56,733 nt of DNA from Candidatus Tayloriibacteriota bacterium (GCA_016188455.1 JACPHR010000021.1:1-56733); one strand, 5' to 3'; positions 2,588-14,588 are shown, counted from the first letter of the stretch. Numbers and translations: made by a program. The notes: a model not told the origin generated them from the letters alone.

Positions 2588-2926
2588 TTCCGAAAACGTT
2601 TATATTCCTGGGTTCTGAAATTGATTAAATTTATAGACAAACTGCCAAGAAATTCCGGCAGTGATGTAATGGGAAAACAATTGTTGAGAAGCGGGACAAG
2701 TGTTCTTGCTAATTACATAGAAGCGGGTTCCGCGAGTTCTAAACGGGATTTTATAAACTTTTTTACTCATTCACTTAAATCAGCAAACGAGTCGGAAATC
2801 TGGCTTAACCTCTTAAGAGATACGAATAATGGCGATAAAATATAATCTGATTTCCTGTTAAGGGAACTGAAAGAAATTAGTAACATAATTGCCTCAAGTA
2901 TTTTGACCATGAAAGAGAAACGATAA
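2534..2926 (+). pseudogene. four-helix-bundle protein (23S rRNA intervening-sequence protein family) interrupted by an in-frame TAA
   Basis: The translation from ATG 2534 (..FRKRLYSWVLKLIKFIDKLP..GKQLLRSGTSVLANYIEAGSASSKRDFINFF..SANESEIWLNLL) resembles the intact paralog at 11620..11994. There is a TAA at 2843-2845, and the same frame continues SDFLLRELKEISNIIASSILTMKEKR to the TAA at 2924-2926, which is the expected C-terminal helix. Confidence 0.6.
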
Positions 2927-10353: not shown

Positions 10354-11589
10354 ATGTCCAAAAAAACCGCCGCAATTATTATAATCGTCTTCGTCCTCCT
10401 CATCGCCGGAGGTTTCCTGGCTTTCTATTTTTACGCCAACCAAGACCAGGACAACAACATCGTCGGGCCGGAGAGTCGCGGCAATATTTTCCCGACCAGC
10501 CCCGCCGCCGGAGGCGCCCAAACTCAGGGTGGCGCGGCGCCAAGCCCGCAACCGCCCGCCGAAAGCGGCACCCGGGCGGCACCGGTGCTTAAAGAACTTT
10601 CAGAGCGCCCTAGTGCTGGGGCGGTGGCGCTGGCCGCATCATCAACCGTACTCGTGCGTTTTGTTGAACGGGGCACGGGCAATGTCTATGAGGTCGGGCC
10701 GGCGCGAGATGGTGAAACCCGCCTCTCCAATACCACTGTGCCAAAAATAGAAGAGGTCTTGTGGCATAAGGACGGCAGAAAAGTCATCCTCCGTTACGCC
10801 GGCGATGACGGCGACTCCATCAAAACTTACAGCGCCTCTCTCGCCGCCAAAGCCTCAGGGGAAGCCGAGGACTCGCTCCAAGGAGCCTTTCTGACTGAAA
10901 ATATCCGGGCGGTGGCGGCAAATCCCGACCAAAACAAGCTGTTCTATCTCTTGCAAGACGCGGGCGGCAGCACCGGCATCATAGCAGAATTTGACGGCGC
11001 CAGAAAAACCCAAATCTTTGATTCGCTCCTACAGGAATGGCTTGTGGCATGGCCGACGCCAACGACTGTTGCCCTCACGAGCAAACCTTCCGCGGGGGTC
11101 CCGGGCTTTTTGTTTCTTTTGAACACCCGAACCGGCGCCCTGACTCGGGCCATATCGGGCATCAAGGGTCTAACGGCTCGGGTCAGCCCGACCGGCTCGC
11201 TGGTCCTTTATGGGGAAAGTCTCCCCCAAGGGCTTTCCTTAAAAATTTATCCTTTTAGTAACGCATCCTTGCGAGAAACGGCCGTGGCCACCCTGCCCGA
11301 AAAATGCCTTTGGTCAAAAAACGACCCGGGGGCTTTATACTGCAGCGTGCCGTCGTACCTGCCAACCGGCAACTACCCCGACGACTGGTACAAAGGGCTG
11401 GTGGCGTTCTCGGATGACATTTGGAAAATTGACAGCCGGACGGGGGCGGGAGAACTACTGGCAAAGCTTAAAGATAACACTGCAAAAGACATAGACGGCA
11501 TCAACCTGTTTATGAGCCCGAGAGAAGATTATCTTTTCTTCATCAACAAAAACGATTTTCATCTATGGAGTTTGCGGATTCAAAACTGA
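10354..11589 (+). CDS. membrane-anchored hypothetical protein (possible beta-propeller ectodomain)
   Basis: N-terminal TM helix (AAIIIIVFVLLIAGGFLAFYF), a Pro/Ala-rich linker and a ~330-aa beta-rich region. No family recognised. Confidence 0.5.
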   Translation: MSKKTAAIIIIVFVLLIAGGFLAFYFYANQDQDNNIVGPESRGNIFPTSPAAGGAQTQGGAAPSPQPPAESGTRAAPVLKELSERPSAGAVALAASSTVLVRFVERGTGNVYEVGPARDGETRLSNTTVPKIEEVLWHKDGRKVILRYAGDDGDSIKTYSASLAAKASGEAEDSLQGAFLTENIRAVAANPDQNKLFYLLQDAGGSTGIIAEFDGARKTQIFDSLLQEWLVAWPTPTTVALTSKPSAGVPGFLFLLNTRTGALTRAISGIKGLTARVSPTGSLVLYGESLPQGLSLKIYPFSNASLRETAVATLPEKCLWSKNDPGALYCSVPSYLPTGNYPDDWYKGLVAFSDDIWKIDSRTGAGELLAKLKDNTAKDIDGINLFMSPREDYLFFINKNDFHLWSLRIQN

Positions 11590-11624
11590 ATAACTTATGA
11601 CTAACAACTGAATTACTGAATGAC
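11585..11624. repeat. family-B (CTGAATGAC-type) inverted-repeat element, left arm (loaded copy)
   Basis: CTGAATAACTTATGACTAACAACTGAATTACTGAATGACC, complementary to 11994-12033. Same family as 14284-14379. Confidence 0.7.
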
Positions 11625-11994
11625 CATGAGAAGATTTAGATTTTTGGATTGGGATGTATACAAAGACGCACGACGATTGTTTGTTGTTATTCTGTCTATC
11701 GTAAAGAAACTCCCAAAAGAATATCGCTATGAAATAGGTAGCCAAATTATCCGTGCTTGTTTCTCTGTGGTACTAAACATTGCGGAGGGAAGTGGAAAAC
11801 ACTCTGAAGCTGAACTTAATCGTTTTTTTGATATAGCCCTTGGTTCTTTGTTTGAAACACTGGCTGCGGTAGATGTATTACGCGAATGCACCTTAGTTGA
11901 AGAAAAAGTATTTTTTGAAGTTGAAAAATTAGCAACAAGTATTTCCAACCAACTTGGTGGATTCAAAAAACACATACGAGGGGGTTCCATCTAG
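11620..11994 (+). CDS. four-helix-bundle protein (23S rRNA intervening-sequence protein / Avd-like family)
   Basis: 124 aa. F.FLDWDVYKDARRLF..I..KLPKEYRYEIGSQIIRACFSVVLNIAEGSGKHSEAELNRFFDIALGSLFETL..L is the characteristic pattern of this family. Confidence 0.8.
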   Translation: MTMRRFRFLDWDVYKDARRLFVVILSIVKKLPKEYRYEIGSQIIRACFSVVLNIAEGSGKHSEAELNRFFDIALGSLFETLAAVDVLRECTLVEEKVFFEVEKLATSISNQLGGFKKHIRGGSI

Positions 11995-12033
11995 TTATTC
12001 AGTCATTCAGTAATAAGTCGTTTGTCATTCAAT
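11994..12033. repeat. family-B inverted-repeat element, right arm (loaded copy)
   Basis: GTTATTCAGTCATTCAGTAATAAGTCGTTTGTCATTCAAT. Confidence 0.7.
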
Positions 12034-12498
12034 ATTTCTCTCGATATATTTAATCACCACTCTTCGCGACGCCCCTTGGCCGGTTGATTCCGTTTTAATA
12101 TCAGGCGACCCCGCCAGAAAGGAGTGAACGAGCATGCGCTCGTAGGCAGACATGGGGTCAAGCTCTATATCCACCTTGAAAGACCGCGCCCGTTCGCACA
12201 TCACTTTGGCCTTGGCTTTCAGGACTTCCAAGGTCTTATCATGGTAATCGTTGACGTCAATAAAAAACTTTTCAGGCGCCTCATCTCCGGCCTGTTTGGC
12301 CGCAATCCTGCGAACAATGTAATTGAAAGCCCCCAAATGCTCGCCGTTCTGGCCGATAAGCAAAGGCGACTCGTCGGTGCGCACCAGGAAACGCACGTGG
12401 TTTGATTGCGGATTTTCAATCCGCTCAATGCTTTCAAAGCGCACATTCATGAGCTTTAAAAGACCTTCCATGATTGCCTTGGCGTCGGGGCCTGCCAT
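12025..12498 (-). CDS. jag: Jag/KhpB-type KH + R3H RNA-binding protein
   Basis: KH-like LLIGQNGEHLGAFNYIVR and C-terminal R3H region (ERMLVHSFLAG..IKTESTGQGASRRVVI). Conserved position downstream of yidC. Confidence 0.75.
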   Translation of the reverse strand: MAGPDAKAIMEGLLKLMNVRFESIERIENPQSNHVRFLVRTDESPLLIGQNGEHLGAFNYIVRRIAAKQAGDEAPEKFFIDVNDYHDKTLEVLKAKAKVMCERARSFKVDIELDPMSAYERMLVHSFLAGSPDIKTESTGQGASRRVVIKYIERNIE

Positions 12499-12534
12499 GG
12501 CACCACTATACTACAAGGCATGAGAAAACGCCCG

Positions 12535-12641
12535 TCCCGTTAGAAAGTCCTGCAAAATTACTGTTCACTGTATACTAAAGCCGCGGAAGAAAAAACAAGA
12601 GAGCTGCGGCCAAATTTTTGTTGGTGAGACTTCTAACGGGA
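12535..12641. repeat. family-E (CCCGTTAGAAG-type) stem-loop element
   Basis: Arms TCCCGTTAGAAAG (12535-12547) and ACTTCTAACGGGA (12629-12641). Related copies at 14476-14588 and 32612-32732. Confidence 0.6.
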
Positions 12642-12683
12642 CCCGTATTGTTAAAAGCCCTCTAAAATCGTGAAATTGAACGG

Positions 12684-12716
12684 CTGACCAGTCAACCTGG
12701 CAGGTTGACTGGTCAC
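12684..12716 (-). terminator. hairpin immediately downstream of yidC
   Basis: CTGACCAGTCAACCTGGCAGGTTGACTGGTCAC has a 13-14 bp stem starting 3 nt after the yidC stop. There is no clear U-run, so its terminator function is uncertain. Confidence 0.4.
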
Positions 12717-12718
12717 TA

Positions 12719-13510
12719 CTAATTCTGCTCTTTCTTATTCGTAGCTATTAGCATATTAGTATCCATTGGTATATTGGTATGGCGTGAGCCAAAAAAAGAC
12801 CGCCTGACGTAAAGCTCCTGGCCAATGGCAAAAAGGTTGCTGGTAATCCAGTAAAGAGAAACCGCGCCAGGAAGATTGAAAGCAAAGACCCCGACAAGGG
12901 CTGGCAGGAAGTAACGCATTTGGAAATTAAGGTTTCTGGCGAAATCATCCTTCATAGAAACTCCAGGCGCTTTAGGCTTTATGGCCGGCATAGAGAATCG
13001 AACTTGAAAATACTGGCTGACGGAAACCAGAATCGCAAGCAAGAGAGAGCCTTTGGTAATATCAACAAAGCCCAAAAAATACATGGTAACTTTAGGGGCG
13101 GAAACTAAAGGGTACAGCAAGTCAGTTTTAATTTCAGGCAAGCCGCCGCTGTAAAAAATATAGTAGAGGGCAAAAATGATGGGGATTTGGATAAGCACCA
13201 GAAAAAAAGTGGAAAAAGGGTTAACCTTTTTTTCTTTGTAGAAAGCCATGGTCGCCTTGGCGTGGGCTTCTCGGTCGCCTTTGTGTTTTTCTTTCAGAAG
13301 AGCGAGGTCGCTTTCAAGCGCTTTCATCTTAAGCTGGGTCCTCGTGGCTTTTTGTGAAAGCGGAAAGAGAATGAGCTTGACTAGGAAGGTAAAAACAACC
13401 ACCGAGATTCCGGCGTCGGCCCAGGGCATGATACTCATGAGAAAAATCAGGCCGTTGTAGAGTGGTTGGTATACGACAAGATTAAAAAAATGACTGAGCA
13501 TGACAAACAC
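12719..13510 (-). CDS. yidC: YidC/Oxa1-family membrane protein insertase
   Basis: Short Gram-positive-type YidC: VVFTFLVKLILFPLSQKATRTQLKMKAL, PFSTFFLVLIQIPIIFALYY, NLFAIGQ. Conserved rnpA-yidC-jag order. The last ~20 codons are encoded by a family-A repeat arm. Confidence 0.85.
   Translation of the reverse strand: MFVMLSHFFNLVVYQPLYNGLIFLMSIMPWADAGISVVVFTFLVKLILFPLSQKATRTQLKMKALESDLALLKEKHKGDREAHAKATMAFYKEKKVNPFSTFFLVLIQIPIIFALYYIFYSGGLPEIKTDLLYPLVSAPKVTMYFLGFVDITKGSLLLAILVSVSQYFQVRFSMPAIKPKAPGVSMKDDFARNLNFQMRYFLPALVGVFAFNLPGAVSLYWITSNLFAIGQELYVRRSFFGSRHTNIPMDTNMLIATNKKEQN
12735..12782. repeat. family-A repeat, solo right-arm-type copy overlapping the yidC 3' end
   Basis: TTATTCGTAGCTATTAGCATATTAGTATCCATTGGTATATTGGTATGG aligns with the right arms at 3860, 7642, 33212 and 53422. 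Confidence 0.7.
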
Positions 13511-13560
13511 TATAATACTAAAATAAGAATTATACTAATCCTACAAATAGCTGCGAACTA
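13511..13560. repeat. family-A repeat, solo left-arm-type copy
   Basis: TATAATACTAAAATAAGAATTATACTAATCCTACAAATAGCTGCGAACTA resembles the left arms at 4575 and 7580. Confidence 0.5.
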
Positions 13561-13564
13561 TAGA

Positions 13565-13678
13565 GCACAAAACACAATATCCAAAATCCAAACAAAACAC
13601 AGATGTTCAGAACACGAACCAAGCATTGTTTGTGAAATTTGGAATGTTTTGTGTTTTGTTTGGATTTTGTGTATGTAC
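13565..13678. repeat. family-D stem-loop (AAAATCCAAACAAAACACA-type) in the rnpA-yidC spacer
   Basis: The left arm ..CCAAAATCCAAACAAAACACAG is complementary to the right arm TGTTTTGTGTTTTGTTTGGATTTTGTG (19-nt perfect core). Confidence 0.6.
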
Positions 13679-13708
13679 GCGCTTTGCGTTTTGTTGATAA
13701 TGTGAGTG

Positions 13709-14050
13709 TCAACCAATAACCCCCGACTTTTTTAATATCGTTTGTATCTCAGGATTTAACCCCGAGAGTGCCCGAGCATCAATTTTCTTTTTGATAAAGA
13801 AGGCGGACAGACTACCCGGCCTGGCGATAGGAAGAAACGAGTGGAGAACGCCGTAGACTCGGCGTTTTATGCCGTTTCTCCTGACCGCGCTTTTCTCAAG
13901 TTTTTTAGGCACCGCCACGGAAAATTTCGCCGGCTTATCGTTGTTGCCAAAAAAAACCCGAAGCGAAAAACCTGCCGAGTGATAACTTCGGCCTTTTCGC
14001 ATAAGAACCTTGAAAAGGTCCCGGCTGACCTTTCGTTTCGCGGGAATCAT
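13709..14050 (-). CDS. rnpA: ribonuclease P protein component
   Basis: 113 aa and basic. FSLRV..., KFSVAVPKKLEKSAVRRNGIKRRV is the RnpA signature region. Located between rpmH and yidC. Confidence 0.8.
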   Translation of the reverse strand: MIPAKRKVSRDLFKVLMRKGRSYHSAGFSLRVFFGNNDKPAKFSVAVPKKLEKSAVRRNGIKRRVYGVLHSFLPIARPGSLSAFFIKKKIDARALSGLNPEIQTILKKSGVIG

Positions 14051-14148
14051 CGGAGTAGAATAAAGATTAAAGAATCGCGATTCAAGAATAAAACAAGAAA
14101 AACCCGCCTCCAGTTATCTCTTACTTGAATCTTAAATCGTGAATCTGT

Positions 14149-14283
14149 TTATATCGCAAGTTTCTTTCGGCCTTTTTGCCGCCGCCGAGCGACTATTGCT
14201 CGGCCGCCCGGTTTTTTCTGCCGCGCCAAAAAGCCGTGGGTTCTGGCGCGCTTCTTCTTTTTAGGTTTGTAGGTGAAGCTCAT
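14149..14283 (-). CDS. rpmH: 50S ribosomal protein L34
   Basis: Not in the ORF track (44 aa). Hand translation gives [44 protein letters not shown], the classic L34 pattern (..R..THGF..R......GR.V...RR.KGRK.L). It lies upstream of rnpA. Confidence 0.85.
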
Positions 14284-14379
14284 GATGAATGACAAATCAC
14301 TGATAACTGAATGACTGAATGACAAACACCTTTATTGTGTGATTCAGTAATTCAGTTATAAGTTATCAGTTATTCAGTG
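14284..14379. repeat. family-B inverted-repeat element (empty) in the rpmH-dnaA spacer
   Basis: Left arm GATGAATGACAAATCACTGATAACTGAATGACTGAATGACAAAC and right arm GTGTGATTCAGTAATTCAGTTATAAGTTATCAGTTATTCAGTG. Confidence 0.7.
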
Positions 14380-14387
14380 TCCCCACT

Positions 14388-14426
14388 TTGTCCACATATT
14401 ATAAACATATCTGACGATTTTCCACA
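14388..14426. promoter_or_regulatory. DnaA-box-like 9-mers upstream of dnaA
   Basis: TTGTCCACA (14388-14396) and TTTTCCACA (14418-14426) each have one mismatch to TTATCCACA. Confidence 0.45.
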
Positions 14427-14475
14427 AGTTTGACGGCGGTTAAATAAGTATATAATGGGAAACACTTTAACATGG

Positions 14476-14588
14476 TCCCGTTAAAAGCTTACAAACAGCC
14501 CTTATAACATTTTTATGCCAAGCCGCGCAGATTTAATAAATAATAAAGCGTACGGAAACGACTGGGTCGTTCCCCGCTTCTAACGGGA
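14476..14588. repeat. family-E stem-loop element ending at the dnaA start codon
   Basis: Arms TCCCGTTAAAAGC (14476-14488) and GCTTCTAACGGGA (14576-14588). The last A is the A of the dnaA ATG. Confidence 0.55.

Follow-up and report, generated by a model that had tools for sequence, protein, structure and literature searches.

The window analysed here is the whole of a 56,733-nt stretch of DNA from a Candidatus Tayloriibacteriota bacterium (GCA_016188455.1, JACPHR010000021.1:1-56733), which is contig C1 of an 893-kb, 31-contig Patescibacteria genome (candidate phyla radiation) that is 98% complete. Two hairpin elements in this window were investigated: a loaded cassette, whose inverted arms enclose a small gene of the PF05635 family, and an empty, gene-less hairpin next to the start of rpmH. 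The genome holding the window is referred to as G000 and its six congeners as G001-G006; L-numbers denote metagenomic or other relatives. The locus contains the following features.

10354-11589, plus strand: gene for a 411-aa protein, upstream of the loaded cassette
11581-11624, plus strand: left arm of the loaded cassette, made up of 8-nt units (CTGAATAA, CTTATGA, CTAACAA, CTGAATTA, CTGAATGA)
11620-11994, plus strand: cargo gene (PF05635), encoding a 122-124-aa four-helix-bundle protein of the 23S ribosomal RNA (rRNA) intervening-sequence family
11994-12038, plus strand: right arm of the loaded cassette, carrying the jag/khpB stop codon (12025-12027, minus strand)
12025-12498, minus strand: jag/khpB, the convergent gene
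12685-12715: perfect 15-nt palindrome between yidC and jag
12719-13510, minus strand: yidC
13572-13674: hairpin between rnpA and yidC, with 25-nt arms of ATCCAAA/ACAAAAC units, 92% complementary
13709-14050, minus strand: rnpA
14064-14146: hairpin between rpmH and rnpA, with 23-nt arms of GATTCAAG-type units
14149-14283, minus strand: rpmH, encoding ribosomal protein L34 (PF00468, E 1.9e-17; ATG at 14281-14283), first gene of the rpmH-rnpA-yidC-jag operon
14284-14384, minus strand: empty CTGAAT-type hairpin in the putative rpmH 5' leader (arms 14286-14324 and 14338-14376, loop 14325-14337)
14385-14470 (about): control block conserved across the genus, outside the element, from an alignment of six congeners and a box search
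14388-14396 and 14418-14426: DnaA-box-like sites (TTGTCCACA and TTTTCCACA), from the box search
14398-14403, minus strand: -10-like TATAAT, tentatively assigned to rpmH
14448-14456, plus strand: GTATATAAT, tentatively assigned to dnaA
14588-15934, plus strand: dnaA
16162-17259, plus strand: dnaN

The first-pass annotation had proposed that the arms of the loaded cassette bracket an intact four-helix-bundle open reading frame (ORF), and this was borne out. The inverted arms (11582-11624 and 11994-12036) are 43 nt each, 74% complementary and separated by 369 nt. The innermost left unit contains an ATG (ctgaATGacc), and the TAG stop codon of the cargo (11992-11994) shares the first base of the right arm. 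The outermost units are occupied by the stop codons of the flanking genes, with the TGA of the 411-aa gene (11587-11589) in the first left-arm unit and that of jag in the last right-arm unit; the 411-aa gene ends with TAA in the six congeners, and the cassette-bearing copies stop inside the first arm unit. When 11570-12050 was folded, the arms paired with each other and enclosed the complete ORF, in the minimum-energy as well as the centroid structure. The loaded cassette (43-nt arms) and the empty copy (39-bp stem) thus both have the long terminal-inverted-repeat stem that surrounds rRNA intervening sequences. Neither lies inside an rRNA helix, the loaded copy being located between the 411-aa gene and jag and the empty one in the rpmH leader. 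Rfam gave no match at either element.

The cargo protein matched PF05635 with 89.6 bits (cut-off 33.8; E 1.8e-25) over profile positions 2-105 of 106, and it matched PDB 2GSC (XCC0516) with E 1.5e-8. At E<=1e-10, 618 relatives were found, and the start codon of the relatives aligns with the second cargo ATG, at 11626. Four relatives (L029, L031, L032 and L129) lie at the same junction, between a homolog of the 411-aa gene and jag, and in a fifth (L125) the cargo gene adjoins yidC. In these relatives the identity to the window cargo was 70-82% (76% in one comparison in which YidC was 47% identical), YidC identity was 46-47% (L032 and L125), and Jag identity was 42-64%; for L032, L125 and L129, the values were 70-76% for the cargo, 46-47% for YidC and 42-47% for Jag. 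The cargo is more conserved than housekeeping neighbours such as yidC, although paralogs of the same genome are only 20-49% identical to one another. Between the cargo gene and its orthologs, second codon positions were 85-92% identical and fourfold third positions 30-49%. These values indicate strong purifying selection on the protein. The fourfold third positions were as diverged in the cargo gene as in the flanking genes, with L029 slightly less saturated (49% vs 30-34%). Since the cargo and flanking genes are equally saturated at synonymous sites, the separation of the cassettes is old, and recent horizontal homing to the jag junction was rejected as the main explanation for the same reason.

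We found that the two elements belong to one arm family. A nucleotide profile (nhmmer) built solely from arms on other contigs was run against the genome, and its top match was the right arm of the empty copy (14384-14347, minus strand; E 6.5e-7). The other arms of the two elements were also recovered, at 14286-14315 (plus strand; E 1.2e-3), 11581-11616 (plus strand; E 5e-4) and 12038-12002 (minus strand; E 7.5e-3), all in the expected orientation, and the TGAAT units are spaced alike in the loaded and the empty copy (22 nt, then 8 nt). G000 contains the word CTGAATNACTGAATNAC 16 times and its reversed control 0 times; elsewhere the word was found 11 times in G001, 0 times in four other congeners and once in 54 other genomes of the order. 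The similarity between 11585-12033 and 14284-14379, which the first-pass annotation had put up for an alignment check, is therefore confirmed by the off-contig profile and the word counts. That the resemblance of 11581-12038 and 14284-14384 is chance AT-rich simple sequence would fit the short, AT-rich units, but the profile E-values (to 6.5e-7, with correct orientation), the reversed-word control (16 vs 0) and the near-uniform length of the empty copies (about 100 nt) refute it, and we give this explanation practically no credence.

Copies of the CTGAAT family lie on 12 contigs of this 0.89-Mb genome: 15 are empty, 4 are partial and 2 are loaded, the loaded ones being the window cassette and C14:28065-28503. 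The arms are made of tandem 8-nt units (CTGAATNA, CTTATAA, CTGATAA), the order of which differs between copies, and two inverted arrays of such 7-8-nt units produce a stem of ~40 bp. Loaded copies are ~460 nt in length around the PF05635 gene; empty copies are 89-125 nt, mostly ~100 nt, with a loop of 13-40 nt. The elements span from stop codon to start codon, with the stops in the terminal units and the flanking starts 0-8 nt from the arms. For annotation, this means that repeat units can supply stop and start codons in these genomes.

The same organization was found around all nine PF05635 genes of the genome that lie outside retroelement loci. Each is flanked by inverted arms of 7-8-nt units, the unit word differs from gene to gene, and in all nine cassettes the ORF is sense to the upstream gene. 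One of the cassettes, C4:839-1192, has inverted arms of CCAACA units, lies just past the 5' end of the 16S rRNA gene and is a true rRNA intervening sequence. At C27:31509-32789 (minus strand), the PF05635 domain forms the N-terminus of a 426-aa open frame, which continues through the right arm, translated as a hydrophobic stretch, into the apparent next gene.

The empty copy has arms of 39 nt that are 82% complementary and are separated by a 13-nt loop. Tandem Repeats Finder detected arrays of period 7-8 at 14282-14323 and 14342-14378. When folded as RNA on the rpmH strand, the element reached -34.6 kcal/mol (z = -3.86), and none of 200 shuffled sequences folded as well. Its stem is broken by single mismatches at regular steps. 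The copy had been described as beginning at the base after the rpmH start codon; it does lie beside that codon, but the stem begins 2-3 nt away from the ATG (14281-14283, minus strand). Shine-Dalgarno-like words precede 8.2% of the starts in this genome and 9.9% of control positions within genes. Since such words are not enriched upstream of starts, an insert at the start codon destroys no such signal.

According to the first-pass annotation, the empty copy also falls where the dnaA promoter and DnaA boxes would be expected. The copy is indeed in the rpmH-dnaA spacer, but the boxes and the promoter block are intact and lie to its right. Alignment of the rpmH-dnaA spacers of six congeners delineated a conserved block of ~90 nt, which corresponds to about 14385-14470 in the window and is intact there. 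A DnaA-box search allowing at most one mismatch gave no match within 14284-14384. A consensus promoter scan called neither TATAAT nor GTATATAAT as a promoter element. GC and AT skew were uninformative for origin placement on the 57-kb contig, and the origin was assigned from gene order and DnaA-box-like words alone. The segment is not conserved as part of the replication origin (oriC) in relatives: the hairpin is absent in G002, it is different in G003, G006, G004 and metagenomic relatives, and it has no DnaA boxes. The hairpin at 14284-14384 is therefore part of neither oriC nor the dnaA promoter, but a passenger in the putative rpmH leader. The hairpin would be transcribed as the rpmH 5' leader if rpmH is expressed from the conserved minus-strand TATAAT. 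Hairpins beside rpmH and dnaA should accordingly not be annotated as origin elements. An exact look-up with the L34 protein for strain-level contigs returned no record.

Other inserts and hairpins were observed in the same region. At 14470-14587, an insert of ~113 nt (cccgttaaaagc ... gcttctaacggg) directly abuts the dnaA ATG; five congeners lack it, as does the close relative L132/L141, in which dnaA starts ~25 nt past GTATATAAT. An element similar to this insert is present at 12531-12640, in the yidC-jag spacer. Within the rpmH-rnpA-yidC-jag operon, there is a hairpin at every other junction too (14064-14146, 13572-13674 and 12685-12715).

We investigated the relationship between arms and cargo with a tree of 29 proteins, on which the arm labels are our own reading. 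The CTGAAT-armed genes formed one clade (SH-aLRT 97), in which a TGGAAC-armed pair was nested (99). Just outside this clade were three CTTACAA-armed genes, from a Gottesmanbacteria genome, a metagenome-assembled genome labelled Nitrospinae and one further contig. In G000, the two CTGAAT-armed cargos share 72% identity, and neither exceeds 44% with any of the seven remaining paralogs, of which the protein of the 16S rRNA copy at C4:839-1192 comes closest to the CTGAAT clade (41-44% identity to the CTGAAT-armed cargos). The arm labels required 18 changes on the tree; none of 500 random relabellings needed fewer than 19. In the orthologous loaded cassettes beside jag, all units of both arms had changed, from CTGAAT.AC:GT.ATTCAG to CTGGAAC:GTTCCAG, a concerted and compensated change. 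These results argue that arms and gene descend together, with the arms evolving faster. Among the cargo residues, three columns separate CTGAAT-armed from TGGAAC-armed proteins; a specificity code in the cargo residues was considered, and with only three separating columns no case for it could be made.

The idea that hairpin elements repeatedly captured or exchanged their cargo, which had been put forward in the first-pass annotation, found no support within the cargo clade, where arm type follows the cargo tree. The other loaded copy in the window (2594-2893) has only the Pfam family in common with the cassette studied here, at about 20% identity. One exception, which leaves some room for arm swapping or convergence, was found in Pinibacter (Bacteroidota), where members of a distant PF05635 clade are bordered by CTGAAT-type arms.

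Occupancy of four junctions was examined in the congeners. Automated hairpin counts (in spacers and in 58 rpmH leaders) were set aside because bulged stems were missed and shuffled controls reached up to 7%, and the sequences were read by eye. In the rpmH leader, G000 and G001 contain a CTGAAT hairpin, G003 and G006 a hairpin of CATGGAAC units, L132/L141 and L184 one of AATTGATAA units, and L130 one of GAAACTTAAAAC units; the leader of G002 is 43 nt long and has no hairpin, and most other rpmH leaders in the order are short and hairpin-free. At the junction of the 411-aa gene and jag, G000 has the loaded CTGAAT cassette, G001, G003 and G006 have empty ATACGAA hairpins, and G002, G004 and G005 have none, so that the loaded cassette is absent from this junction in all six congeners. 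At the rplO-secY and secY-adk junctions, CTGAAT hairpins are present in G000 and other unit families in most congeners, with none in G002. Slot occupancy is widely shared, and the arm family is genome-specific. This combination would result if elements inserted repeatedly at preferred slots, and equally if resident hairpins were converted to whichever family is active in the genome. G002, which is 100% complete, contains no PF05635 gene and has periodic hairpins at 0/4 junctions, where short spacers or an ordinary terminator are found instead.

The wider distribution was examined with an exact hairpin pattern of 21 specified bases, searched in one-genome-per-species contigs, for which ~8 chance matches were estimated. 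The pattern matched 77 stretches, clustered in certain genomes (several Patescibacteria, Pinibacter, another Chitinophagaceae genome, Bacteroidales and Dyadobacter), with single matches elsewhere. A near-identical unit word is thus used in Patescibacteria and Bacteroidota. Viruses were rejected as vectors, as the pattern gave only one match in a viral contig collection. In Pinibacter aurantiacus (L041, L049, L063, L077, L098, L100, L104 and L113; L116-L124), many (CTGAATAA)n hairpins were observed, and all seven PF05635 genes with readable flanks have arms of 7-8-nt units, two of them of CTGAAT type. Pinibacter aurantiacus is in culture and could serve as a tractable host for this element class. 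Full-text literature searches returned no account of PF05635 cassettes, or of the empty versions, in any location other than rRNA. The element class is real and widespread and, outside rRNA, has apparently not been described.

Taken together, we consider it probable that both segments belong to one sequence family within a broad class of stem-loop cassettes resembling ORF-bearing rRNA intervening sequences, with gene-less derivatives, and that they are co-transcribed with host operons. The elements would be transcribed as part of host mRNAs, and their mismatch-punctuated stem may be cut by the RNase III of the genome, as in rRNA intervening sequences, or otherwise tolerated. Empty copies would be derived from, or dependent on, loaded ones, and the arm sequence would spread between junctions either through insertion resembling transposition or through conversion of existing hairpins. 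The genes to which this reading and the alternatives below refer are located as follows.

C11:16348-16740: RNase III gene (E 4.6e-38)
C28:15658-16338, C19:6562-7296, C14:54014-54688 and C18:6202-6906: Y1 (IS200/RAYT-like) genes, each with its own palindrome family
C14:43758-44774, C21:4407-5489 and C30:14095-15123: reverse transcriptases

Several observations weigh against the reading as one cassette family with gene-less derivatives. G001 has at least 11 CTGAAT hairpins and no CTGAAT-armed PF05635 gene, and in G006 hairpins occur in an assembly devoid of any PF05635 gene; completeness is only 90-92% for these two assemblies. The 15 empty copies have loops with no relationship to each other, which is unexpected if the copies had recently been transposed, and the filling of the same junctions by different families in most congeners fits in-place turnover as well as re-insertion. 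No direct repeat indicative of a target-site duplication was evident at the element ends, and no clean filled/empty pair at nucleotide resolution was seen among the relatives, which are too diverged outside constrained blocks. In 19 loaded cassettes, the sense and antisense stems had near-equal mean energies (-34.6 vs -34.7 kcal/mol; Wilcoxon p 0.78), and G:U pairs numbered 81 in the sense vs 104 in the antisense strand. Given this lack of strand bias in stem stability, nothing points to selection on RNA rather than DNA hairpins.

A further-reaching version of this reading, which we regard as tentative and doubtful, is that the PF05635 protein and the flanking 7-8-nt arrays constitute a self-contained mobile or self-maintaining system that needs no transposase. 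This conserved protein, a pentamer in PDB 2GSC, would work on the periodic, mismatch-punctuated stem in its DNA or RNA form, and its action would propagate, convert or protect its own cassette plus the gene-less copies. Insertion at junctions may be tolerated because the folded stem would bring the upstream stop and the downstream start together, and rRNA intervening sequences would be the special case that was noticed first. If true, such self-maintenance would explain the origin of rRNA intervening sequences, the role of this very widespread protein family and the hairpin-filled operon junctions of these tiny genomes.

The hairpins could instead be old host structures at operon junctions (RNase III sites, stabilisers of mRNA ends or stop/start couplers) whose arms turn over in situ, through slippage of units and gene conversion among the hairpins of a genome; the families would then be a product of within-genome homogenisation and not of transposition. 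Hairpins are present in most congeners at all four junctions examined, with genome-specific unit families; the arms at the orthologous loaded site changed wholesale in place; and there are unrelated loops among copies of one family and a hairpin at every junction of the rpmH-rnpA-yidC-jag operon, all of which favour this reading. On the other hand, at all four junctions G002 gets by on short spacers or an ordinary terminator in place of a hairpin, across the wider order the rpmH leader is mostly short and hairpin-free, and an almost identical unit word recurs in several phyla, which makes a host-structure origin rather unlikely. Conversion between loci, moreover, itself spreads sequence, so that this alternative differs from the cassette-family reading mainly in mechanism.

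Two further alternatives invoke known mobilising enzymes. Movement via an RNA intermediate, in which a stem-excised transcript is copied by the reverse transcriptase of a diversity-generating retroelement with the cargo acting like its homolog Avd, a cofactor of this enzyme, would draw on the three such enzymes of the genome (PF00078; LPLGNVTSQLFAN motif), each of which has an adjacent Avd-like ORF. The co-matching of PF05635 and bAvd profiles to cargo relatives and the consistent sense orientation of loaded ORFs to host transcription fit this mechanism, but there is no poly-A or adenine-mutagenesis signature, and the empty copies occur in both orientations to transcription (3 vs 7 by our own reading of the arm layouts), and we regard it as improbable. 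Still less plausible, in our judgement very unlikely, is that the hairpins are REP/REPIN-like elements moved by Y1 (IS200/RAYT-type) transposases with the four-helix gene as a passenger. The genome does encode four PF01797 (Y1_Tnp) proteins of 224-244 aa, but each gene has its own palindromes (TATAGGTCAGACCTATA, CAAGGAGACTCCTTG, TAATTGGTGTCA arrays and others), CTGAAT units flank none of the four, and no Y1 gene is next to a CTGAAT copy, so the flanking of a Y1 gene by the same palindromes that defines REP/REPIN-RAYT systems was not found. The arms, ~40 nt of tandem units, are also unlike REP heads, and arm type tracks the tree of the four-helix-bundle gene. Because the flanking palindromes differ, Y1 transposases were rejected as mobilisers.

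Two details of these enzyme loci were observed in passing. The Y1 gene on C28 lies between arrays of TAATTGGTGTCA units, and on C14 and C30 the small Avd-like ORF next to the reverse transcriptase is on the opposite strand.

Comparison with known systems places the cassette family among several classes of elements. Intercistronic RNase III sites of phage T7 are imperfect stem-loops between cistrons, at which cleavage separates the messages and leaves protective 3' stems. Unlike the elements described here, each T7 site is unique and shorter and does not belong to a dispersed repeat, and cleavage, which occurs at T7 sites, is only proposed for the present elements. Correia/NEMIS, ERIC, RUP and BOX elements, which are co-transcribed with genes, and REPIN-RAYT systems resemble the present elements as short dispersed intergenic hairpin repeats that are lineage-specific, occur in full and miniature forms and are tolerated in operons. 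The features of miniature inverted-repeat elements, that is, dispersed copies, terminal inverted repeats and presence/absence among relatives, were all found. In contrast to such elements, the arms here are unit arrays in place of unique terminal repeats, no target-site duplication was seen, and the full-length partner encodes no transposase or nuclease; a cognate transposase-encoding element with the same ends was not found, the full-length partners encoding only the 122-aa four-helix-bundle protein. Avd of diversity-generating retroelements is a homologous small four-helix bundle, and cargo relatives match PF22296 (bAvd), but the cargo gene here is boxed by hairpin arms and is not beside a reverse transcriptase, template repeat or variable repeat.

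The closest likeness is to ORF-bearing rRNA intervening sequences (those of Leptospira, and of Coxiella burnetii in helix 45 with S23p), which have the same PF05635 family, inverted repeats around the ORF and an ORF sense to the host transcript. In rRNA intervening sequences, a 28-bp terminal stem is cut by RNase III around an S23p ORF, and their origin and mobility are unexplained (PMC4990558). PF05635 ORFs have been described in 16S and 23S rRNA insertions of candidate-phyla-radiation bacteria (bioRxiv 10.1101/2024.02.27.582315). The elements reported here differ in lying between protein genes or in an mRNA leader, in their tandem 8-nt units with spaced mismatches, in gene-less forms of ~100 nt that outnumber the loaded copies, and in a strongly conserved cargo, as against the Coxiella ORF, which is reported to be decaying. 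As the defining location in rRNA is lacking, the family is a variant, not a member, of the rRNA intervening sequences. For over 30 years neither the origin nor the function of rRNA intervening sequences and S23p/PF05635 ORFs has found an accepted explanation (PMC4990558), and finding the same design at operon junctions outside rRNA, with many gene-less copies, turns them into a general, testable class of elements.

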